Below, piece by piece: positions 920 to 64,000 of a stretch of DNA of 64,000 bases. A model generated the notes under the pieces. It was not told the origin of the DNA and did not search any database. It saw only the letters and a program-made list of their open reading frames with translations. How positions within the stretch are numbered: the first letter of the stretch is position 1; every line of letters begins with the position of its first letter. The translations under genes were made by a program, and so were the position numbers. Source of the stretch: Planctomycetota bacterium (GTDB taxonomy: Bacteria > Planctomycetota > Planctomycetia > Pirellulales > Pirellulaceae); assembly GCA_014238905.1 (NCBI GenBank), contig JABAAE010000012.1, forward strand, positions 104,156 through 168,155. Direction: 5' to 3'.

Positions 920-1666
920 TCTCGCTGGGTAAGGATGTTGCGGTTTTGTTAAAATCGGCATATTTCCTACTCTTTCTCAAACCTATTGAACGCTGAAGTC
1001 CATTTTTCCTTAATTTCAGTAGCCAAACTTGGGGTGAATCCAGTGTTGGGAGTCATTTTCAGCATTTGGGAACGTAAAAACATTTCGAGAAAAAATTTGA
1101 GGATTGCGACGGAGTTGCCCTACCCTTTTTGGGGGAAGGGATCGTGGGTGGTATTTTTTTTCAGTTGGAATCGGAACGGTCGTTGATCCTCGTGAAGGAC
1201 CATCAAGAGCCTATTGGGCGGATTCACCTTTGGTTATCGAAACTGACTTGGTGACCCAAGGCTGAGCTTATCGGGAAAGCCAATAGACGGGCGGCGGCTC
1301 ATCGGGCCCCAAAGGGTGGTCCTTGTCAGGCGGTGATCAACTCGATAATTGATAGTTTGGGCAAGCTGAAATGGAAAAAAGGGTGGTGCATCCATTTTCT
1401 CGGTGCGGCATGAATTGATTTGCGAACCGGTTGCCCCCGGTCAGCAGGCTATTGTAATCTGATAACATGAATTTTCAGTGGGGCGTCGATTGGCGTCTCT
1501 TAAAAGCCTGTAGGCGATGTGCCCATTGGTATTAAAACACCACGGTATTTTGCAGCTTACTTTACGGCTTACTTTGTGGCGTACTGATGGGGTGATACCA
1601 CCATTTGGGTTGCGCTGCATGTGGAATTCATCTTTTGAAAGAACCATCCGAACCGAGAGAGATTCT

Positions 1667-3868
1667 ATGTCATTTCGTCCAGAAAAAATGGAGATTGAGC
1701 GACAACCCAGTGGGTTTTCTAATTGGAGTAGATTGAGGACGAGCTGGTCCCTGATGCTACTGATTGGAGTGGTCGCCGGATTCCAAAACAGAGCCGTCTG
1801 TCAGGACACCTCCAAGGCAAAACTGGATCCGGTTGCCCAAACAAAACAGGTGGCGGTCGACGACGATCCGGATGCTCCCTTTCAGCGTCGATTTGACGTG
1901 CCGGATTTTCCCAAGGGTGTGGAATGGCTCAATACTCGAAAGCCGATCAGCAAGCTTGATCTCAAAGGGAAATTTGTAATTCTGGATTTTTGGACCTATT
2001 GCTGCATCAACTGTATTCACGTTCTCCCGGAGCTTAAGAAGCTTGAAAAGAAATACCCCAACCGATTGGTTGTGATTGGTGTCCATTCAGCCAAATTTGA
2101 AAATGAAAAGGACACCGAGAATATTCGTGAGGCAATCCTGAGATATGAAATCGAACACCCGGTCATCAACGACTTTGACCATAAAGTCTGGGACCAGTTT
2201 TCAGCACGGAGCTGGCCTTCCCTCAGGATGTTGGACCCGGAAGGGAAATTGGTTGCCGGACATTCTGGCGAAATTCGGTTTGAAGATCTTGATGCCTTTC
2301 TGAAGCCGGTTTTGGACTATTACGATAAAAAGGGTCTGCTTGATAAGACACCGCTTCGTTTTGAATTGGAGAGCGCAAAAGAAAAACCGACACCACTTCG
2401 ATTCCCCGGAAAAATTCTAGCAGATGAAAAAGGTAAACGGCTGTTTATTACTGACAGCAACCACAACCGGATCGTTATCACTGACCTTGATGGAAAATTG
2501 ATGGGGACGATTGGCTCGGGACAAATTGGCAACAGCGATGGCGATTTTGATACTGCCGAATTTGACCATCCGCAGGGAACGGTCCTCAACGGCGATCTTC
2601 TGTACGTTTGTGATACGGAAAACCACAATTTGCGGAAAGTCGACCTGGTAAAGAAAACGGTAACTACTATTGCAGGAAGTGGGAGACAGGCTAAACGTGC
2701 ATTTCAACACTTCAACCAAGAAGAAACTGGGTTTTCCCAGTGGAGCGGTGATCCACGCAAAACAGAGTTGAACAGTCCCTGGGCATTGTGGATTCACGGT
2801 ACTGATTTATATATCGCGATGGCTGGGCCGCATCAAATCTGGAAGATGCCGCTGGATGAATCGACGATTGGGCCGTTTGCCGGGAATGCGCGTGAAGATA
2901 TCGTAGACGGGGCATTGTTGCCATCGGAACCCTACGGATTAGGCGCCGCATCTTTTGCTCAGCCAAGTGGACTGGCAAGTGATGGCACCTGGTTATACGT
3001 AGCAGACACCGAAGGAAGTTCCATACGAGCGGTTCCCTTCGAAGGTAACCAACCGGTTAAGACCGTGGTGGGAACAGCGGAACAGCCGAGCGGGCGTTTA
3101 TTCATTTTTGGCGACAAAGACGGACAACGAAAGGATGTTCTCCTGCAACATGCCATTGGAATTGCCTATTCTGATTCTCGGCTTTTCGTTGCCGACACCT
3201 ACAATAACAAGATCAAAATTGTTAACGCGAAAACGGGGGAAACCAGAACTTTGGCGGGGACTGGACAGCCCGGTTCAGATGATTTGCCAGGCACGTTTGA
3301 CGAACCTGCCGGCTTGGCGTTTGCCAACGGCACGCTTTACGTTGCCGATACCAATAACCACCTGATTCGAAAAGTTGATCCCAAATCGGGCAAAGTATCG
3401 ACATTGACCATCGAAGGCCTGCAACCGCCGATTGCTACGCCAAACACCGGTCGCTCCAAAATCCATTACCCCAAGGCCTCCATTGCCAAGGTGACCGGTA
3501 CCGCAAGACCTGAAAAAGGAATGGTGCGATTTTCAGTTCAACTGAACTGGCCCGACGGTTGGAAAACCAACGAGCTGGCACCGATGGGATATTATGTCCA
3601 TTTCCCTGGGGACCAAGGGGTGGTCGATCGATCACAGGTTTCGACCGAAAAAATTAAGTTGACCTCACCCAGCGACCAATTTGATATCTTGCTACCAGTC
3701 AAGGCAGACGGTCAGGACAAGTTGCGTATCGAAATGCCCTTCTTTTATTGCCAAACCGGGGATACCGGTGTTTGCAAATTTGGTCAGGTTGCGTTTGAGA
3801 TTGATCTGACTGTGTCGGGCTCTTCAAAAATGGATCGGGTGCAACTTGAATTCGATGTCACCGACTAG
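1667..3868 (+). CDS. Thioredoxin-like (redoxin, CC-x-x-C) plus NHL-repeat protein, NHLRC2-like architecture, with signal peptide
   Basis: ORF 1517..3868; the likely start is the internal ATG at 1667 (MSFRPEKMEIERQ...SLMLLIGVVAGFQ). Redoxin-like block FVILDFWTYCCINCIHVLPELKKLEKKYPNRLVVIGVHS. Five NHL-type repeats (LFITDSNHNRIVITDLDG, LYVCDTENHNLRKVD, LYVADTEGSSIRAV, LFVADTYNNKIKIVN, LYVADTNNHLIRKVD). Beta-rich C-terminal domain. Confidence 0.75.
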   Translation: MSFRPEKMEIERQPSGFSNWSRLRTSWSLMLLIGVVAGFQNRAVCQDTSKAKLDPVAQTKQVAVDDDPDAPFQRRFDVPDFPKGVEWLNTRKPISKLDLKGKFVILDFWTYCCINCIHVLPELKKLEKKYPNRLVVIGVHSAKFENEKDTENIREAILRYEIEHPVINDFDHKVWDQFSARSWPSLRMLDPEGKLVAGHSGEIRFEDLDAFLKPVLDYYDKKGLLDKTPLRFELESAKEKPTPLRFPGKILADEKGKRLFITDSNHNRIVITDLDGKLMGTIGSGQIGNSDGDFDTAEFDHPQGTVLNGDLLYVCDTENHNLRKVDLVKKTVTTIAGSGRQAKRAFQHFNQEETGFSQWSGDPRKTELNSPWALWIHGTDLYIAMAGPHQIWKMPLDESTIGPFAGNAREDIVDGALLPSEPYGLGAASFAQPSGLASDGTWLYVADTEGSSIRAVPFEGNQPVKTVVGTAEQPSGRLFIFGDKDGQRKDVLLQHAIGIAYSDSRLFVADTYNNKIKIVNAKTGETRTLAGTGQPGSDDLPGTFDEPAGLAFANGTLYVADTNNHLIRKVDPKSGKVSTLTIEGLQPPIATPNTGRSKIHYPKASIAKVTGTARPEKGMVRFSVQLNWPDGWKTNELAPMGYYVHFPGDQGVVDRSQVSTEKIKLTSPSDQFDILLPVKADGQDKLRIEMPFFYCQTGDTGVCKFGQVAFEIDLTVSGSSKMDRVQLEFDVTD

Positions 3869-9574: not shown

Positions 9575-12100
9575 CTATTTGTTTTTTTTTCGACTTGATG
9601 GACTGAAGCTAGATTGACTTGACTGAGGTTTGCCAGATTTTTTCTTGGTGCTGAATTTCTTCTTTGCCCCAAAACTGCCCGGTTTTGAAAAGTTTTTCTT
9701 CTTGGGTGATCCGGTCGATTTTTGAAACTTGTTTTTTTGCTCGGACGTCTTTGGGTTAAAACCCTTTTCTTTAGCTGGTGCAACACCTGACTCAGCAGTT
9801 CCCTCCCCGCGATGCTTGAAATCTCTCCCTTTGTTACGTTGATTGGAAAGATTGTCTGATTTGGGAAAAGAGGAACGCTTTTGTTGGTCGTTTTTCTTGT
9901 TGCCCATGCGGCTGGCAGGGCGACGGTCCCTGCTATTACGGTCCCTGCTATTACGGTCCCTGCTATTACGATCGCTGCTATGACGATCGCTGCTATGACG
10001 ATCGCTTTCAGTCAGTTTGGAGATGTTCAGAGAGCGACCGGAAACGGTGACGCCTTTGAGGTGATCGATCGCACTTTGGGAAATGTCTAATGGGAGATCT
10101 ACCGTGCTGTAGCGATCAAATATTTTGATTTTTCCTATCGCTTCGTTGCCAATTCCAGCTTCGTTGGTGATCGCACCGACAATATTTCCGGGCTGGACCC
10201 GGTCCTGATTACCGATTTCAATTCGATAGGATTCGAACTGTGAATTGGATCTTGCAAATCGTCTGGCAGCTGACGATTCCGATTTGCGACCACCATGTCG
10301 CTGTTGACCATGGCCGCCTTTTCTACCTCGAACACTTTCTCGTGAGTTGTGCTCGGAGAAATCCGGTAGCTTCAACTCCTCGCGAACCAACATCGACGTT
10401 TGCCCGTTTGCCATGACTGCCAAGGCGGCGGCGATATTTTCCATGGGTACATCATTTTCATTTTCATAGTGTTCGATGATGGTCCGGAATTTTTCGATTT
10501 CTCGGCTGCCTAACGATTCACTGATTTTCTCGTGAAACCGAGTCACTCGGCTCTTGTTGATCGCGCGGTTATTTGGCACCGCGTAGCGTTCGATAGACTG
10601 CCGCGTCCCTTTTTCGATTTCGTTTAGCACCGTTTTTTCTCTAGGGTGCAGGAATAATATCGCCTCGCCATTGCGTCCGGCACGACCTGTTCTGCCGATA
10701 CGGTGGACATAACTTTCTACATCATGTGGCAAATCGTAGTTGACGACGTGGCTGATTCTTTCTACATCCAGGCCTCTCGCAGCCACATCGGTGGCAACGA
10801 TGACATCGATTTTCCCACGCCGGAGGTTTTCGACGATTTTTTCACGTTGTTTTTGTGGGACATCGCCGTTAAGTGCTGCTGTCGTCAGGCCGGTTTCCGT
10901 TGCCACAAAGTCTGCAAGGGGTTCGGTCGTGCTTCGCATCTTTACAAAAATGAGAACCCCTTCAGTTGGTTCGGCCTCCAGAATCCTGGATAACGCAGCC
11001 TGTTTTTGATGGGGAGATGCGATCACATACCTTTGATTAATCGTCGACGCCGTCGTTCGTTTTTTGTCGATAGTGATCTGCGCGGGGTCGTGAAGGTGTT
11101 TCGAGGCAATGGCTCGGATTTGATTCGGCAAGGTTGCCGAGAAAAATGCCATTTGGCGTTGTTTTGGAGCTTGGGTAAGTACCCAGTCGACGTCTTCAGC
11201 AAAACCCATCCTCAGCATCTCGTCCGCCTCGTCCAGAACAAGGCAAACCAGACCCTCTAGATTCATGGTTTTGCGTCTTAAATGGTCCATGACTCGTCCA
11301 GGCGTTCCCACAACGACATGAGCACCTCGATTGAGTTGTTTGAATTGAACGTGGTAGTCCTGTCCACCGTAAATGGCTGCGACCCGTAAGCCCTTTAAAT
11401 ATTTTGCGTAAGATTCAAAGCTCTCGGCGACTTGAATGGCAAGTTCCCGTGTTGGGACCAGAACAAGGACTTGGGTTCGTTTATTGTGAAGGTCGACTCG
11501 GTCCAAAAGTGGTAACGCAAAGGCGGCCGTTTTCCCCGTTCCTGTTTGGGCTTGGCCGAGCACGTCTTTTCCGGCGAGGATGAGGGGGATGGTTTTGGAT
11601 TGAATTGGCGTTGGCGTGGTGTATCCCGCTTCGTCGATTGATGCAACAAGTTGATCCGTCAGTCCCAACTGGGCAAACTTGTTGACTGGTTGGCCGCTAC
11701 GTGAGCGGTCCCCGGAATCCTCAGTCTTAGATTCTTCGGCAGTGCTTGTGATGCCCTGATTGTTTTCCTGATCTTCTACAAGATCAGAGCCTTCGGCCGG
11801 CGCCGATTCACTTTCGTCTGCGCTTGAGATGGAGGGGCTGCAGGGATCAGGTTGTCCCGATTCGTTGTCCAGGCCGGTAGATTCTTCGGCAGTGCTTGTG
11901 ATGCCCTGATTGTTTTCCTGATCTTTTACAAGATCAGAGCCTTCGGCCGGCGCCGATCCACTTTCGTCTGCGCTTGAGATGGAGGGGCTGCAGGGATCAG
12001 GTTGTCCCGGTTCGTTGTCCAGACCAGTAGATTCGGCAGAGTTCGAGTGAATGGAAACGTCAGATTTGGGCGAGGTTTCCATGGCTTCAGCTTGCGACAT
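9575..12100 (-). CDS. DEAD-box ATP-dependent RNA helicase (DeaD/CsdA-like) with repetitive acidic N-terminal extension and SDR/Lys-rich C-terminal tail
   Basis: Q-motif through motif VI: TPTPIQSKTIP, AQTGTGKTAAF, PTRELA, VLDEADEMLRMGF, SAT, HRIGRTGRAGRNG. A DbpA-type RNA-binding region follows (GKIKIFDRYSTVDLP). The tail reads SDRHSSDRHSSDRNSRDRNSRDRNSRDRRP then ...KKKFSTKKKSGKP. Confidence 0.9.
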   Translation of the reverse strand: MSQAEAMETSPKSDVSIHSNSAESTGLDNEPGQPDPCSPSISSADESGSAPAEGSDLVKDQENNQGITSTAEESTGLDNESGQPDPCSPSISSADESESAPAEGSDLVEDQENNQGITSTAEESKTEDSGDRSRSGQPVNKFAQLGLTDQLVASIDEAGYTTPTPIQSKTIPLILAGKDVLGQAQTGTGKTAAFALPLLDRVDLHNKRTQVLVLVPTRELAIQVAESFESYAKYLKGLRVAAIYGGQDYHVQFKQLNRGAHVVVGTPGRVMDHLRRKTMNLEGLVCLVLDEADEMLRMGFAEDVDWVLTQAPKQRQMAFFSATLPNQIRAIASKHLHDPAQITIDKKRTTASTINQRYVIASPHQKQAALSRILEAEPTEGVLIFVKMRSTTEPLADFVATETGLTTAALNGDVPQKQREKIVENLRRGKIDVIVATDVAARGLDVERISHVVNYDLPHDVESYVHRIGRTGRAGRNGEAILFLHPREKTVLNEIEKGTRQSIERYAVPNNRAINKSRVTRFHEKISESLGSREIEKFRTIIEHYENENDVPMENIAAALAVMANGQTSMLVREELKLPDFSEHNSRESVRGRKGGHGQQRHGGRKSESSAARRFARSNSQFESYRIEIGNQDRVQPGNIVGAITNEAGIGNEAIGKIKIFDRYSTVDLPLDISQSAIDHLKGVTVSGRSLNISKLTESDRHSSDRHSSDRNSRDRNSRDRNSRDRRPASRMGNKKNDQQKRSSFPKSDNLSNQRNKGRDFKHRGEGTAESGVAPAKEKGFNPKTSEQKNKFQKSTGSPKKKNFSKPGSFGAKKKFSTKKKSGKPQSSQSSFSPSSRKKNK
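9933..10007. repeat. 15-bp in-frame tandem repeats x5 inside the helicase 3' region (acggtccctgctatt x3, acgatcgctgctatg x2)
   Basis: Contiguous copies. On the coding (minus) strand they encode the SDRHS/SDRNS/RDRNS pentapeptide repeats. Confidence 0.8.
11729..12028. repeat. 150-bp in-frame tandem duplication in the helicase 5' region
   Basis: Two near-identical 150-bp copies (3-4 mismatches) encode the 50-aa unit ESTGLDNE(P/S)GQPDPCSPSISSADES(G/E)SAPAEGSDLV(K/E)DQENNQGITSTAE twice. Confidence 0.8.
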
Positions 12101-27138: not shown

Positions 27139-27465
27139 TTAATCCTGAGTTGGCAGTAATTCAAACTGAGTCACTTTGAAACGACCATCGATGATTTCAC
27201 CGGATACCTCAGCGTTTCTAACGCAATTGCATAATCCATTCTCGTGATGCGCATCGCCGTGGTCATCGATACCCGATCCGTCGACAAAATAGGATTTTTC
27301 TCCTAGGCGTATCGCCAAATCACAGCCGTCCCCATCCATACCGAATTGGCACTGCCCGCATGAGGCTTGTACCATGATGACGCGTTCTTGAGGCGATTCC
27401 TGCTGGTGGGGCATGGGGTCGGTGTTGCAGCCGGCCTGTAAGATCAGTATCGCACTGATCATCAT
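27139..27465 (-). CDS. Small Cys/His-rich lipoprotein (metal-binding?)
   Basis: ORF 27139..27531; the likely start is MMISAILILQAGC (lipobox). The mature part reads SCGQCQFGMDGDGCDLAIRLGEKSYFVDGSGIDDHGDAHHENGLCNCVR, with 6 Cys plus a His cluster. Confidence 0.5.
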   Translation of the reverse strand: MMISAILILQAGCNTDPMPHQQESPQERVIMVQASCGQCQFGMDGDGCDLAIRLGEKSYFVDGSGIDDHGDAHHENGLCNCVRNAEVSGEIIDGRFKVTQFELLPTQD

Positions 27466-28276
27466 TAGTTTCGAAAAATGGTAGGCCGCCAAGTGTGACT
27501 CGGCAAGGTGATGGATGTCTCGAGATGTCATTGGGCACCTTGTCTCAAAAGGGCAAGCACTGGAATTGGCAAGGAATCAAAATTGAATTTCCGTCCTCGA
27601 CGTTTTCCATTAAACACAATTGACCACTGCAATTCCACAAAGAAACCAATGGGGTCATCAATTTCCCATTGAGTACCGATTCGATGGTTCGAGGCAACTG
27701 ATGTGATTTGGGCCTCACCGGAAAGATGGCTAATTCCAGCTTTTGATTGAACGAGGAGTTGCCAATGAATCGATTGGCTGTGGTTCTCATAGCCTTTGCC
27801 CTGCTTTCGGCCGAGGATGTGTGCGCTCCGGAAAAGTTGGCGAAATCCAAACCGCTGCAATGGTGAACGAAAACAGCGAAGGGGCCCTTTTTCTGATATC
27901 TCCGGCGGATCCATCGAAACCGGCGGCTTGGCTGGGGACCGGAATTAGCTTTTACCTGGCAAGTATCAAATTCGGATCTTCCGGGATACCAAAAACAAAA
28001 TCGCGGCTTCGGCGGCTGGCATACTGGATAAAGAAGATCTGGTAGGGTGTGTCGTCACACAGGCTCAATGGGGAACCGGATTTCCCAATGCTGAAATCAT
28101 TTCGGCAAGTGATCTCGCGAAGTGACTTTTGATTCTGGCCGGGTAGCGGTATGCGTCCCTAACGGTTTTTGTTTTTCCAGTGATAGTCGGTTGCTCGAGT
28201 CACCTGCCGAATCGCGTCGACCGGGTTTGGACAGGTGTCCTCATACCCTATGCTGCTCGGTGGTGACAGTTCCTTG

Positions 28277-28945
28277 TTACTTCGACAGTAACTCAGCCTG
28301 CTGCACCAAAGCTTCGATTTCGTAATCGGCATCTAGTTTGGATTCCGGACCTTTAAACCTGATGATCCCCTTCGCGTCGATCAGCATCGCATACCCGGCT
28401 GCGTCGAGTTCAAGCGTGTCTGCGATATCAGGTATTCCTTGATCCTCGCGACTGGAGAATGATCTCCAGGAGACTTCGTATTTTTTTTCCATGGATGCAA
28501 CATCTCCACCATCCTCGCCCATGTTGACACCAAGTATGACGAAAGGACGACCTTTGTACTTCTTAACGAGCGACCGCTCGTGTGGAATACTGTCCACGCA
28601 AGTCGTTCACCAACTGGCCCAAGTGTCGAGCAATATGACTTTGCCCTTATAGTCAGCCAGTGAGAATGTTGTGTTTTGGGCATCGCTTCCAGAAACATCA
28701 GGTAACCTTTGGCCGGGTAAGTTGCCCTCCGGCGTCGTTGCAGCGTCGAGTTCGCCAAACGGTAATTTCGATACTATTTGCTGGCTGGCTGGGTCTTTGG
28801 TTGCCAAGCTTTTTTTTTGCCCCTTGTCTTCTCCACTGCCGCAACCGTTGAACCCAAGAGCTGTGATGATGGCAATGCCGTACACCAAGGGTCCCATCCG
28901 TCTAAAGAAGTACCAGGAAGTTTCATGGTTGTGGTTGTTGATCAT
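28277..28945 (-). CDS. TlpA/ResA-like thiol:disulfide oxidoreductase lipoprotein with TGA at the active-site position (W-A-S-W-U-T-T-C): candidate selenoprotein
   Basis: ORFs 28607..29071 and 28277..28597 share a frame. The codon at 28607..28609 is TGA, and three codons later the second ORF begins. Joined: ...FSLADYKGKVILLDTWASW-TGA-TTCVDSIPHERSLVKKYKGRPFVILGVNMGEDGGD... This matches the WCxxC...P(+8)...KY...LGVN spacing of the TlpA/ResA/CcmG family. The likely start is the ATG at ~28945 (MINNHNHETSWYFFRRMGPLVYGIAIITALGFNGC). Confidence 0.7.
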
Positions 28946-29168
28946 GGCGTTCCGGTGTTGATTAAGGTTGAACGGTAGCGAGCCTGACGCTGGTAGCAGA
29001 AACCAGGATCTATTCGAAATCGCACCCTGGATCTTCGGCCCTTTTCGGCGATGGGCGGCAACGCACCACACCCCTAGCGTTATCTATGATACGGTTGAAC
29101 ACTTAACAATCCAATATCGTTCGCATCATTGTCTAACCACTTTGGAAATATCAAGGATCGGCTACCGC

Positions 29169-29708
29169 ATGCAAAACCACGGACCTTGGAAAATATTACA
29201 TACCGATTCGGTTTACCGTGATCCTTACGTGGAAGTGACCAGGGATGATGTCATCCGTCCGGATGGAAAACCCGGTACCCATGTCAAAGTATTTATGAAG
29301 CCGGGGGTTTCCGTTCTTGCGATGGATGCTCAAAAAAACGTCTACCTGACCCACGAGTTCCACTATGCCATCGGCCGCTATTCGACCGAATTGGCAAGTG
29401 GTGGAATCGAGAAGGGTGAATCGGCTCTTTCTACCGCTCAACGCGAATTGCGCGAAGAATTAGGGATTGTCGCCAACGACTGGCTGGATCTTGGGAGCGT
29501 CCATCCGTTCACGACTATTATTGAATCCCCAACCCAATTATATCTGGCAACGGATCTTACCTTTACCGAAAGTGCACCCGAGGGTACCGAGCTGATTGAT
29601 TGTGTTAAGATGAAACTCTCGGAGGCTATTGACAAAGTGCTTGCTGGAGAAATTTTTCATGCACCCAGTTGTGTGGCGATTTTAAAATCGGCGACGCTAG
29701 TCAAGTGA
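29169..29708 (+). CDS. NUDIX hydrolase (ADP-ribose pyrophosphatase-like)
   Basis: ORF 28968..29708; the likely start is the internal ATG at 29169 (MQNHGPWKIL). This avoids overlap with the divergent TlpA-like gene. Nudix box GGIEKGESALSTAQRELREELGI. Confidence 0.75.
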   Translation: MQNHGPWKILHTDSVYRDPYVEVTRDDVIRPDGKPGTHVKVFMKPGVSVLAMDAQKNVYLTHEFHYAIGRYSTELASGGIEKGESALSTAQRELREELGIVANDWLDLGSVHPFTTIIESPTQLYLATDLTFTESAPEGTELIDCVKMKLSEAIDKVLAGEIFHAPSCVAILKSATLVK

Positions 29709-30907: not shown

Positions 30908-33094
30908 ATGCCATCAATACCGAGTTTTCTTCTTGGACAAGGTGACGCGGGTCTAGCAAATGTGTCGGGATCCCTGATTCCGCCATGGGTCATGTACACG
31001 CTGACGACGATTGCCATCTTGGTCGTTCTGACATTCGGTATTCTTGCGTTGTACGCGTATTTCTTCAAAAAGGTGGCTCCCGGAACCGCATTGGTGATTA
31101 CCGGTCGAGGAAAGATGGATGTGACGTTCACAGGTAAAATTGTGATCCCCATTTTTCACCGCTATGAAATCATGGACATATCTGTCAAACGAATCGAGAT
31201 CGATCGGAGTGGAACGGACGGTCTGATCTGTCAAGACAATATTCGGGCGGATATCAAGGTTGCCTTCTTTTTGCGAGTCAACAACAAGATCGAAGCGGTG
31301 TTGGATGTAGCTCAGAGCTTGGGCTGTCAGCGGGCATCTCACCAGGATGCACTGGAAAGTCTCTTTGAACCAAAGTTCTCGGAAGCATTGAAATCGGTTG
31401 GTAAACAATTCGACTTTGTGGATCTGTATAACTCGCGAGAGACGTTTCGTGATGAGATCAAAAAAGTCATTGGTCAAGATCTTAATGGATTTTTTCTTGA
31501 CGATGTTTCCATCGACTATCTGGAGCAAACGTCTTTGGAATTGTTGGATCCCAACAACGTACTCGATGCAGAGGGTATTAAGAAAATTACTGATTTGACC
31601 GCCCAGGAGCAGGTGCGAGCAAACTTTATCCGCAGGGAAAAGGAAAAAACGATCACCAAGCAGGATGTAGAAGCTCGGGAAGCGATTCTGGAGTTGGAAA
31701 AGCAGCAAAAAGAGGCAGAGGAAAAGCAACAGAGAGAGATCAGCGAAATCAAATCTCGTCAACGATCGGAGGCGGAGATCGTTTCGCAGCAGGAACGGCA
31801 ACGAAGTGAAACGGCCAGGATTTCGGCGGAAGAAGAGATCTTTGTGGCCGAAGAAAACAAGCAACGATCAGTCATTGTTGCGGAAAAGAGCAAGGTTCGG
31901 ACGGATCAGGTCGAGACCGAACGAGTCGAAAAAGACCGTTTGCTTGAGGTTACCGAACGGGAGAGGGTCGTTTCCCTTGCCGATATCGACAAAGACAAGG
32001 CGATCGAAGTTGAAAAGAAGCACATACAGGATGTCATTCGCGAGCGGGTAATGGTCGAGCGAGCGGTCGTCGAAGAAGAGGAAAAAATCAAGGACACAAA
32101 GGAATTCGCATTTGCTGACCGATCGAAGCAGGTTGCGGTGACCAAGGCAACTGAAGAAGCCGAACAACGATTGGTGAAAGAAGTTCAGGCAGCCGAGGCA
32201 GAGAAGCAATCGGCGACCAAACAAGCGGAGACCGTCGTGATCAATGCCGAAGCGGATCGATCTGCATCGGAAAAGAAGGCTGACGCCAAAAAAATGTTGG
32301 CTGATGCGAGTCGGGTGGAAGTCGCGTCTACGGGCTTGGCTGAAGCGGAAGTCTTGCAAAGCAAAGCCGAGGCGGAGGCTCGCGGTGATGAAGCGAAGGC
32401 AACGGCGTTGCAGAAAGTGGGTCTGGCCGAGGCCACAGTACTCCAGAAAAAACACGAAGCCGAGGCAAAAGGTCAGGAAGCCTTGGCAACCGCAACGGAG
32501 AAAACCGGAACCGCAGAAGCGACGGTCCTGGAATTGAAATTCTCGGCGGATGCCAAGGGAATCACTCAAAAGGCTGAAGCCATGAAGCTGTTTGATGGAG
32601 TTGGAAGGGAACATGAAGAGTTCAAGATCCAGCTGAACAAAGAGAAAGATATCGAATTGGCCGCAATCGATGTTCAAAAAGACATCGCTGAAGCTCAGGC
32701 AGAGCTGGTTGGCGAGGCATTGAAAACCGCGAAAATCGACATCGTCGGTGGAGACAACAAGTTCTTTAACAGTTTGGTTGGCTCGATTACCGCAGGTAAG
32801 CAGGTGGACCGTCTGGTTGGAAATAGCGAAGTGCTGGGTGATGTTAAGGAGACATTTTTTAACGGGAACCCTGATTTCTTCAAGTCGCAGCTGCAGGAGT
32901 TTGTTGATCTGTTCGGCGTCAGTTCAGATGATCTGAAAAATCTCACGATTGCAGGATTGATCGGTAACATGTTGAGCCAGTCCAGCAACGATGTTGGAAT
33001 GATTGGGCAGCTTCAAAAAATGCTGAATAATGCGACCCAAATGGGCATCGCCAATAACTCAGCGAGCAGCCTGAATCTTGGTCCAAAGAAGTAA
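30908..33094 (+). CDS. Flotillin family protein (SPFH/band-7 domain plus long coiled coil; YqiK-like)
   Basis: N-terminal TM, then SPFH block TALVITGRGKMDVTFTGKIVIPIFHRYEIMDISVKRIEIDRSGTDGLICQDNIRADIKVAFFLRV. A ~350-aa E/A/K/Q-rich coiled coil follows, then a C-terminal globular tail. RBS ggagatattaatATG. The antisense ORFs 30953..31864 and 31868..32677 are codon-bias artefacts. Confidence 0.85.
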   Translation: MPSIPSFLLGQGDAGLANVSGSLIPPWVMYTLTTIAILVVLTFGILALYAYFFKKVAPGTALVITGRGKMDVTFTGKIVIPIFHRYEIMDISVKRIEIDRSGTDGLICQDNIRADIKVAFFLRVNNKIEAVLDVAQSLGCQRASHQDALESLFEPKFSEALKSVGKQFDFVDLYNSRETFRDEIKKVIGQDLNGFFLDDVSIDYLEQTSLELLDPNNVLDAEGIKKITDLTAQEQVRANFIRREKEKTITKQDVEAREAILELEKQQKEAEEKQQREISEIKSRQRSEAEIVSQQERQRSETARISAEEEIFVAEENKQRSVIVAEKSKVRTDQVETERVEKDRLLEVTERERVVSLADIDKDKAIEVEKKHIQDVIRERVMVERAVVEEEEKIKDTKEFAFADRSKQVAVTKATEEAEQRLVKEVQAAEAEKQSATKQAETVVINAEADRSASEKKADAKKMLADASRVEVASTGLAEAEVLQSKAEAEARGDEAKATALQKVGLAEATVLQKKHEAEAKGQEALATATEKTGTAEATVLELKFSADAKGITQKAEAMKLFDGVGREHEEFKIQLNKEKDIELAAIDVQKDIAEAQAELVGEALKTAKIDIVGGDNKFFNSLVGSITAGKQVDRLVGNSEVLGDVKETFFNGNPDFFKSQLQEFVDLFGVSSDDLKNLTIAGLIGNMLSQSSNDVGMIGQLQKMLNNATQMGIANNSASSLNLGPKK

Positions 33095-62671: not shown

Positions 62672-62898
62672 ATAGCAACGAGTTGCGAGAATTGCTGTTT
62701 TCGTCGTGCAACTCGTGCGACTCTTCGCGAGCCCCTGCGTGCAGGTACTGCTTCGGATTCTGCTTCGCCTCATTTGAAAACTGCTGTTTCCCGAGGGTCC
62801 CTGCCCCTGTTCGAGTCCTCTCCGGTACGCGACCCCGAAATCGCGACGTGCGAATCGATACATTAATTCGCTCATTTTAACCAGCTTAGTCGCCGTTG

Positions 62899-64000
62899 TT
62901 ACTGGCCAATCCTGGCTTCCTTCAATTGAAACGGCCGATCGACGGGGACGTTTTCAAATGATTGCAGTTTTCCGTCGGGCCACCTGACGGTTAATTCATC
63001 AACGACTGTAGCGTTGCCGATACCAATCAAGAGTTGAGCGGGGGACAAACCCATGCAGCCGTTGGCTGGAAACAGATCGCGAATAATCTTCCTCGGGCCC
63101 ACCTTTAAAGTGACTCGTGACCCAATTGCGGGCCGATTGGATTTGGTTCCTTCCAGCTCGATCGAGAGAAATCGATTCGTTCTGGGGAATTGATTGGAGA
63201 ATAATCTCAGGCTCCCACCGCCTGCCGAACCGACCAATAGATCGGGGTACCCATCCTGATCGAAATCGGCCCCGACGGCACTGCGACTGTCAGAGTCGAT
63301 ATCGACGTCTGATGCGAATGAAACATCGAAAAATTTGTGGCCGTCGATGTTTAAATAAAATTTGTTGCGCTCATAGGCGCTCAGGTTTTCGCCTGCCTTG
63401 GTGATGGCGAACGGGTTGGTGGCCCAGAATTCACCAGCAGCATGATCAATATCTCCCAGGGGTTGGATTTCACAGGTTCGATCGGTTGGCCGTGACACGA
63501 CGGCACGCCAGAGACACGTTCAGCCATCCGGTTTTTCACGATCGAAGCTCATGAAGCCGGTGGTCGCATAGAGATCCAGGAGTCCGTCACCGTTGAAGTC
63601 ACACATGATCGGGGCAAATGCCCAGCCCACCTCATTGACGCCGGCCTGATCGGTCACGTCCACATAACGGTTGTCACCGTCGGTTTTTCGATAGAGCCGG
63701 TTTCCTGCACAGGAGCCTTGTATTTGTGGGAAAATATCCTTGGGGTAATCTTCATCCCCGACATGAGAAATGATCCGCCTTCCCATTTTGGAATACATAT
63801 TGGCGACATAAATTTCGGTAGTTCCGTCATTATCCAGATCGCCAGTAGCAACACCCATGCTGGTTGCAAAATCGGCTGCACCGCATACCTCGGAAATGTC
63901 TTCGAATGTTCCATCTCCTTGATTGCGTAACACCAGATTTTTTGCGAAATCGTTGGCGACATAGAGATCGGGGTAATGGTCATCATCAAAATAAAGCCAA
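62899..64000 (-). CDS. ASPIC/UnbV plus FG-GAP/VCBS-repeat protein (CRTAC1-like), N-terminus beyond window end; contains one in-frame TGA (63520..63522)
   Basis: ORFs 63520..63933 and 62899..63498 are in the same frame. Joined: ...DFNGDGLLDLYATTGFMSFDREKPDG-TGA-TCLWRAVVSRPTDRTCEIQPLGDIDH... The upstream part has FG-GAP loops DLDNDGTTEIYVAN and DFNGDGLLDLY. The downstream part has FDQDGYPDLLVG and the ASPIC/UnbV C-terminus ...LTVRWPDGKLQSFENVPVDRPFQL. Confidence 0.55.

Follow-up and report, generated by a model that had tools for sequence, protein, structure and literature searches.

The window analysed here is a stretch of 64,000 nucleotides (nt) from a Planctomycetota bacterium of the Pirellulaceae (GenBank contig JABAAE010000012.1, positions 104,156 to 168,155), and on its minus strand two adjacent open reading frames (ORFs) at 28277-29071 are separated by a single TGA. 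These two ORFs are very probably one gene, predicted to encode an exported TlpA/ResA-like thiol:disulfide oxidoreductase in which the nucleophilic Cys is replaced by selenocysteine (Sec, U) in the motif W-A-S-W-U-T-T-C. A preliminary description, made from the letters of the window, had proposed a probable UxxC selenoprotein split into two ORFs, and this is now supported by conservation of the TGA among relatives, by an RNA hairpin linked to the TGA and by frozen synonymous sites. The gene is a new member of the long-predicted UxxC TlpA/Prx-like selenoproteins, which are established predicted families (PMC13188914 Table 1; PMC9312934; PMC1794560; PMC1088965), and lies in a Planctomycetota clade that is large and well defined.

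A shared reading frame with one internal TGA

Reading of the minus strand from 29071 to 28277 gave a single frame with one interruption only, the TGA at 28607-28609. The ORFs at 28607..29071 and 28277..28597 shared this frame with one stop between them, so that direct reading confirmed the arrangement given in the preliminary description. The DNA around the stop was CTC GAC ACT TGG GCC AGT TGG TGA ACG ACT TGC GTG GAC AGT ATT CCA CAC GAG CGG TCG CTC GTT, translated across the stop as LLDTWASW*TTCVDSIPHERSLV, with the local motif W-A-S-W-[TGA]-T-T-C. The frame described earlier stood, but its start did not: GTG at 29071 was only the start of the longest ORF and overlapped a NUDIX gene transcribed divergently. 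ATG at 28945 (MINNHNHETSWYFFRRMGPLVYGIAIITALGFNGC...) is the likely start, because its signal-peptide layout was shared with two close relatives (L002 and L005). The predicted selenoprotein gene (28277..28945, minus strand) would comprise 222 codons from this ATG to TAA at 28277-28279, with UGA as codon 113 (28607..28609, minus strand), read as the Sec of U-T-T-C. The TGC of codon 116 (28598..28600, minus strand), the predicted resolving Cys of UxxC, was invariant in close relatives.

Residues 1-35 (28841..28945, minus strand) were recognized from their sequence and from L002 and L005 as a putative signal peptide with a lipoprotein-type Cys (...RRMGPLVYGIAIITALGFNGC). From ATG 28945 a charged n-region and a hydrophobic core were followed by Cys, and the relatives had Cys at the matching place (...LFGITSVIGC in L002 and ...SLLLGGC in L005), suggesting that the redoxin is probably lipid-anchored.

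Domain and active site

The read-through product, with Cys placed at the stop, was used as query in a Pfam search. Redoxin (PF08534; 4.4e-16, 59.4 bits, gathering cut-off 26.6) and AhpC-TSA (PF00578; 7.3e-12, 45.8 bits, gathering cut-off 26) were both matched, each spanning both halves. Together with matches to the Protein Data Bank (PDB), these placed a Redoxin/TlpA-like thioredoxin-fold domain at residues 77-203 (28337..28717, minus strand). The PDB matches included 4k9z, 1jfu (TlpA), 1st9 (ResA), DsbE and unnamed "thiol-disulfide oxidoreductases", and in their alignments the TGA column was the first Cys of WA(S/T)WC-x-x-C. The site W-A-S-W-U-T-T-C therefore corresponded to the W-C-x-x-C active site with U replacing the first Cys, and the Pfam and PDB alignments bore out the earlier claim that, in a redoxin of TlpA/ResA type, the TGA takes the place of the N-terminal Cys of the active site.

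Closer family assignments were considered and rejected. No NCBIfam model matched the redoxin gene at its cut-off: the TlpA/ResA models NF047696 and NF002854 scored 49.1 against 230 bits and 47.7 against 170 bits, and an orthologue of TlpA, ResA or DsbE was rejected on the NCBIfam cut-offs. The WAxxUGC ResA-like family (NF041054) was rejected on both its score (33.8 bits against a cut-off of 300) and its motif, U-T-T-C here and not U-G-C. A peroxiredoxin was rejected too, since the P-x-x-x-T/S-x-x-C/U motif was absent: three residues ahead of U, in L-D-T-W-A-S-W-U, stood an Ala and not Thr. The naming rule for Prx-like selenoproteins (PF00578 with UxxC or UxxU; PMC9312934) described the window gene, with UxxC, and two relatives (L100 and L101) with UxxU. 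By domain and Sec-motif naming, the predicted product is thus one that fits the Prx-like and/or the thiol-disulfide isomerase-like selenoprotein family.

Conservation of the UGA codon among relatives

The codon at residue 113 was read by local tblastn in 164 loci, 160 of them from scans of genome and metagenome contigs, in which the best genome hit was 62% identical. It was TGA in 52, TGC in 76, TGT in 35 and CGA in one. The TGA loci were the nearest relatives, and those with a taxonomic label were all Planctomycetota (Pirellulaceae, Gemmataceae, Isosphaeraceae and Planctomycetaceae); loci of other phyla all had Cys in this column. The preliminary description had expected Cys-containing homologues to put Cys at the TGA, and TGC or TGT was found there in 111 loci. 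It had also regarded a point nonsense mutation at this codon as a coincidence, and 52 relatives kept the TGA. TGA in 52 loci against Cys in 111 is the classic Sec/Cys pattern, which excludes a sequencing error and a private nonsense mutation alike.

The four closest proteins, found in a collection of 5.8 billion proteins at 60-72% identity, were all C-terminal fragments of 122-133 residues beginning MDGIPHERSLV, with the same GTG as start. On their contigs an upstream ORF stopped 9 nt before the start of the fragment, which is the split seen in the window. Three of these contigs read TGG TGA GGC AGx TGC GTG GAT GGA ATT CCA CAC GAG CGG TCG CTC GTT. Because gene callers treat UGA as a stop, they report two ORFs in place of one gene, both in the window and in all of its relatives. 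Both halves of the gene were conserved with L001-L003 and L005. Downstream of the TGA, among the window and its close relatives, the proportion of nonsynonymous differences (pN) was 0.19-0.27 while that of synonymous differences (pS) was saturated (0.7-1.0), indicating that the frame is translated and under purifying selection.

Several loci departed from the common pattern. In L100 (85-99; TTC TGA GGC GGC TGA CGG, F-U-G-G-U-R) the codon-116 Cys was also TGA, giving UxxU, and a second metagenomic relative with UxxU, U-L-Q-U, was L101 (329-343); in both, the two TGAs shared a single GGUC hairpin of the kind described below. L004 had CGA (Arg) at the Sec codon (1913-1915) and L008 had TGT (Cys; 10106-10108), each with the full CACGAGCGGTCGCTCGT hairpin kept. 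The Arg variant would lose the catalytic nucleophile and L008 would be a Cys revertant; from their sequences both look like recent losses of Sec with a fossil Sec insertion sequence (SECIS). L014 carried tandem Sec paralogues on one contig, at 601-651 and ~966 nt downstream (hairpin 1596-1609), each with W-TGA-G-P-C and a GGUC hairpin. In L001 an in-frame stretch upstream of the Sec domain (2-214) looked like the C-terminal part of a further redoxin domain (...ITWRSFWNGPQGTRGPISTKWNVRGWPTIYVIDAKG), indicating either a tandem-domain protein or a chimeric assembly.

A SECIS-type hairpin linked to the UGA

A hairpin, ACGAGC-GGUC-GCUCGU, was found at 28566..28581 (minus strand), with a stem of 6 base pairs (bp), a GGUC loop and 31 nt from UGA to loop; the segment encodes (H)ERSLV. 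Folded alone it gave -8.5 kcal/mol (z = -3.0 against shuffles). The published bacterial SECIS model (PMC13188914 Fig. 2) has a loop of 3-9 nt, a stem of 4-16 bp, G in the first two loop positions, a UGA-loop spacing of 16-37 nt and a minimum free energy of at most -7.5 kcal/mol. The window hairpin lay within all of these limits (4 nt, 6 bp, GG, 31 nt and -8.5 kcal/mol), so that the search for a SECIS which the preliminary description had proposed as a check ended in a hairpin at 28566-28581 satisfying the published constraints.

Nearly all of the TGA loci carried, 27 nt past the TGA, CAC GAG CGG TCG CTC GTG, which forms a perfect hairpin CACGAGC-GGUC-GCUCGUG. Scored as a GGUC loop on a stem of at least 5 bp at the exact offset from codon 113, the hairpin was present in 47 of the 52 TGA loci against one of the 111 Cys loci, the exception being L008 (Fisher 5e-34, such p-values overstating independence because the loci are phylogenetically related). 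The resulting DNA signature of the family, TGA-N27-CACGAGCGGTCGCTCGTG, was near-invariant.

Synonymous sites were frozen over the same region. In the window and its four closest relatives, pS in codons +1 to +14 past the UGA was 0.22-0.31 against 0.7-1.0 elsewhere, and in codons +3 to +14 eight of the ten degenerate codons with an invariant amino acid used a single codon against 3 of 53 elsewhere (p = 1.7e-6, five sequences). Among 46 distinct Sec genes encoding H-E-R-S-L-V, Arg was CGG, Ser TCG, Leu CTC and Glu GAG, each in 46 of 46, while elsewhere in the same genes CGG, TCG, CTC and GAG made up 11%, 16%, 36% and 53% of the codons for their amino acids. The Cys homologues were without HERSLV. 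The freezing of the codons indicates that the RNA, and not the peptide, is the constrained object.

Other structures were found near the UGA or sought in the window. A further hairpin directly past the UGA, GUGGA-CAGUAU-UCCAC (28582..28597, minus strand), was present in the predicted fold, and its codons (+3 to +9) were synonymously frozen in the five close sequences; it is possibly an accessory structure specific to the subclade of the window. As a SECIS it was rejected on its 14-nt spacing, a G only at the third loop position and lack of conservation across the family. A longer fold, pairing UGA-proximal bases with the CGAG of the GGUC hairpin, was rejected on pairs that were not kept in relatives. 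No second copy of the SECIS was detected in the window by a covariance model built from 37 family sequences or by pattern searches; no Rfam family matched, and a permissive Rfam scan of 28480-28680 returned only noise.

Four TGA members were without the GGUC hairpin: L018 and L020, with HQRALV, and L098 and L122, with HEKALV/HEKELV. L018 and L020 had a strong 7-bp hairpin immediately 3' of the UGA, UGUGUGGG-CGAGUU-CCCACAC, and L122 folded into a different, weak structure (z = -0.1). Members of the family may have had their SECIS replaced.

UGA as a stop codon and the Sec machinery

TGA ended 8 of the 34 Pfam-supported genes of the window (hemC, tkt, NUDIX, RND, DJ-1, GFO oxidoreductase, alpha/beta hydrolase and a PSCyt protein), indicating that it is not reassigned genome-wide. 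This count agrees with the earlier estimate that TGA was a genuine stop for about a quarter of the genes and that genome-wide reassignment was unlikely.

Complete sets of Sec-insertion genes are reported in the planctomycetes P1, P2, Gemmata obscuriglobus and Isosphaera pallida (PMC4807772), and split selenoprotein candidates of P1 include a "thiol-disulfide isomerase-like thioredoxin", a peroxiredoxin and AhpC/TSA (PMC4807772, S9 Table). Because of these reported gene sets, and of a second conserved in-frame TGA with a hairpin in the window (see below), the Sec machinery would be expected in the source organism.

The GGUC hairpin would act as a bacterial SECIS by binding SelB.GTP.Sec-tRNA(Sec), and the SelB complex would compete with RF2 in bringing Sec to the UGA. 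The precursor of 222 residues would be exported via the general secretory (Sec) translocon and anchored on the periplasmic face, where U113 and C116, by analogy with known redoxins, might cycle between selenenylsulfide and selenol/thiol in reducing periplasmic substrates. Re-reduction might be by a membrane electron carrier of the CcdA/DsbD type, as in TlpA, ResA and CcmG; no CcdA/DsbD-type carrier or substrate gene was adjacent to the redoxin gene.

Evidence against and alternative readings

Several observations weigh against an exported TlpA/ResA-like selenoprotein, in addition to the relatedness of the loci already noted. The hairpin hardly varies, so that covariation in it was scarce and did not exceed shuffle controls: it showed one compensatory G-C to A-U double change (L102, which also changes Leu to Phe) and four changes from C-G to U-G. 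The 64-kb window contained no tRNA, tRNA-Sec included, and no selA, selB or selD; ARAGORN detected no tRNA-Sec in the flanks when run on the window and L001-L164. The putative lipoprotein-type signal described earlier has an n-region, a core and a Cys, but its lipobox, F-N-G-C, is non-canonical. Finally, the alignment showed no cis-Pro loop in the window and its four closest relatives.

A chance nonsense change at the active-site codon of an ordinary CxxC redoxin, in a pseudogene or through a sequencing error, would need only a single TGT/TGC to TGA change and is compatible with the window taken alone. Such an origin is nevertheless extremely improbable and effectively refuted, since the TGA stood at the same codon in 52 independent contigs from differing samples and lineages, selection downstream was purifying with saturated synonymous sites, and a dedicated hairpin co-occurred with the TGA. 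The chance that the two ORFs are real genes translated apart, one giving an N-terminal lipoprotein fragment that ends at the TGA and the other a C-terminal protein begun anew at the GTG three codons on, is likewise minute. Gene callers do predict exactly this split in every relative and the subclade of the window has GTG 9 nt past the TGA, but the wider family has CGG (Arg), which is not a start codon, at that position. The thioredoxin fold would moreover be cut between strand beta1 and the active-site helix, leaving W-x-x-W and x-x-C on different chains, and the ORFs always shared one frame, parted by a single stop. The Cys homologues were single chains. Decoding of the UGA as one of the standard amino acids (Trp, Cys, Gly or Arg), through reassignment or near-cognate suppression, has precedent in bacterial lineages that reassign UGA, and L004 has CGA (Arg) at the site with its hairpin intact. 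It is nonetheless very improbable here: TGA terminated 8 of 34 well-supported window genes at their normal ends, the site aligned with a catalytic Cys in the classic Sec/Cys pairing, the conserved hairpin fitted the bacterial SECIS model, and the UxxU variants L100 and L101 fitted the known UxxC/UxxU family (PMC13188914).

A genuine selenoprotein with a function other than that of a TlpA/ResA-style disulfide reductase, such as binding of metal or selenium species or peroxidase activity, is unlikely, though it deserves more weight than the readings above. In a family alignment of 56 sequences, about 47 Sec members had G-W-P-T, containing the cis-Pro, whereas the window, L001-L003 and L005 had A-A-G-Y; in the window the Gly for cis-Pro (protein ...LELDAAGYAMLIDAKG) was placed by the alignment at 28370-28390 (minus strand). 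The cis-Pro in the thioredoxin family is thought to keep active-site thiolates from metal binding, which counts in favour of such a function. Profile matches of this subclade to the PDB mostly ended after the N-terminal half of the fold, the C-terminal half being divergent from TlpA/ResA structures. The subclade combined a putative lipoprotein signal, UxxC, Gly for cis-Pro, a second frozen hairpin past the UGA and a conserved divergent NUDIX neighbour, and its chemistry may differ from that of TlpA/ResA. That it is a functionally distinct periplasmic selenoprotein, binding metal or selenium/sulfur species or trapping mixed selenenylsulfides, is a minor possibility suggested by these sequence traits. 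Such a function is argued from the alignment, while the domain, the predicted export signal and the motif W-x-x-W-U-x-x-C were otherwise typically TlpA-like, the Thr of peroxiredoxins was absent (Ala there) and no metal-handling neighbours were found in the window. A separate gene of the window, at 1517-3868 (plus strand), encoded a 783-residue protein with Thioredoxin_8/AhpC-TSA and NHL repeats, ordinary Cys (FWTYCCINC) and the cis-Pro kept (SWPSL).

Neighbouring genes

The window was an ordinary planctomycete chromosome segment (PSCyt1/PSCyt2/PSD1, DUF1501, hemC, tkt, carB and others). The NUDIX hydrolase gene (28968-29708, plus strand), divergent from the redoxin gene, was the only syntenic neighbour found, the arrangement being kept in L002 (69% identity) and in the P0004 contig. 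Clustering of neighbours around 53 Sec loci gave no recurrent partner gene and was dominated by spurious ORFs of high-GC metagenome-assembled genomes. A small Cys-rich lipoprotein-like gene of DUF6370 (CGQCQF...C...C.C; 27139-27531, minus strand) lay ~750 nt downstream with no clear gene between, and was not syntenic in L002.

A second in-frame TGA in an FG-GAP/ASPIC gene

An FG-GAP/VCBS and UnbV_ASPIC gene on the minus strand (62899-64000, with its stop at 62899 and running off the window end at 64000) contained an in-frame TGA at 63520-63522, with the local reading ...FDREKPDG-TGA-TCLWRAVV.... The TGA was followed, after 20 nt, by a hairpin GCCGU-CGUGUC-ACGGC, in the loop of which G and U take the second and third positions. 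The best 120 of 2,645 homologues (E <= 1e-20; Planctomycetota and Verrucomicrobiota) were all split at the point of the TGA, into N-terminal fragments mostly of 570-640 residues (shorter ones being partial) and C-terminal fragments of ~205-215 residues; the four N-terminal fragments whose sequences were read ended in ...KPDG. Three contigs kept CCG GAY GGC TGA ACG TGY, and in one of them a C-G pair of the stem was replaced by U-A, a compensatory change. Unsplit homologues (790-844 residues) had Ser, Glu, Asp, Ala, Val or Leu at the TGA position, not Cys, and several of them kept a Cys two residues later.

These features make the gene a second candidate selenoprotein of the window. The candidates given for planctomycete P1 include an "ASPIC UnbV; FG-Gap" protein (PMC4807772, S9 Table); beyond that table, the family was absent from the literature found, from NCBIfam and from the selenoprotein table of a 2026 review. 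This lead may be more novel than the TlpA-like selenoprotein. A 2.65-kb metagenome contig (L165, Logan run ERR3341554) was at 1354-2650 99.85% identical to window 62704-64000, indicating that this public run holds either the source organism itself or a strain very close to it.

The other same-frame ORF pairs split by TGA in the window, found by a systematic scan, were rejected as out-of-frame or antisense artefacts, the FG-GAP gene excepted. Among them, 30953-32923 (minus strand; TGA 31868-31870, ORFs of 351 and 304 codons) was an antisense artefact of a Glu/Lys/Ala-rich gene without a Pfam match at 30908-33094 (plus strand).

Significance and comparison with known systems

In public Planctomycetota assemblies and metagenomes, gene calling breaks the redoxin gene and at least 52 of its relatives into two truncated ORFs each, and because of this they are lost from counts of functions and of selenoproteomes. 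As a simple and specific marker, the signature TGA-N27-CACGAGCGGTCGCTCGTG could be used to retrieve the entire clade. The family is also an example of how a protein is constrained by a SECIS in its coding region: the peptide H-E-R-S-L-V owes its existence to the hairpin, and is a fossil in the Cys revertant L008 and the CGA variant L004. The finding leaves knowledge of Sec decoding and of thioredoxin-fold chemistry unchanged, its main value being in annotation, and adds a predicted exported selenoprotein to the Planctomycetota, a phylum with little-studied selenium use.

TlpA of Bradyrhizobium (1jfu/4txo), ResA of Bacillus subtilis (1st9) and CcmG/DsbE, the best PDB matches, are exported or membrane-anchored thioredoxin-fold reductases with W-C-x-x-C, whose first Cys is the residue on which the TGA falls. 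They use Cys and have a cis-Pro loop, whereas the window gene is predicted to use Sec and its subclade is apparently without the cis-Pro. The SECIS of Escherichia coli fdhF is also a coding-sequence hairpin that follows closely on the 3' side of the UGA and bears a small loop at its apex. The apical loop of the fdhF element reads GGUC. It lies ~18 nt past the UGA, compared with 31 nt here, and the window hairpin is without a bulged U.

Among predicted selenoproteins, the ResA-like WAxxUGC protein (NF041054; "UGC-containing TlpA family", PMC13188914) shares the TlpA/ResA-like fold and Sec after W-A-x-x, with the motif U-G-C and not U-x-x-C. The "thiol-disulfide isomerase-like thioredoxin" candidates of planctomycete P1 (PMC4807772, S9 Table), compared by their description only, are from the same phylum and were likewise annotated as two adjacent genes; bSECISearch found no SECIS in them (PMC4807772), whereas the present gene has a clear hairpin. 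The thiol-disulfide isomerase-like selenoprotein from the Sargasso Sea (cd02966, TlpA-like; PMC1088965) similarly has a TlpA-like fold and UxxC. By domain and motif, the gene resembles the Prx-like thiol:disulfide oxidoreductase selenoproteins (PF00578; type member WP_010940744.1; PMC13188914, PMC9312934, PMC1794560), which likewise have an AhpC-TSA/Redoxin domain, Sec as the first residue of UxxC and a SECIS inside the coding region. Catalogued members of that family are mainly from Deltaproteobacteria and marine metagenomes, whereas the present clade is of Planctomycetota and has its own SECIS, encoding H-E-R-S-L-V.

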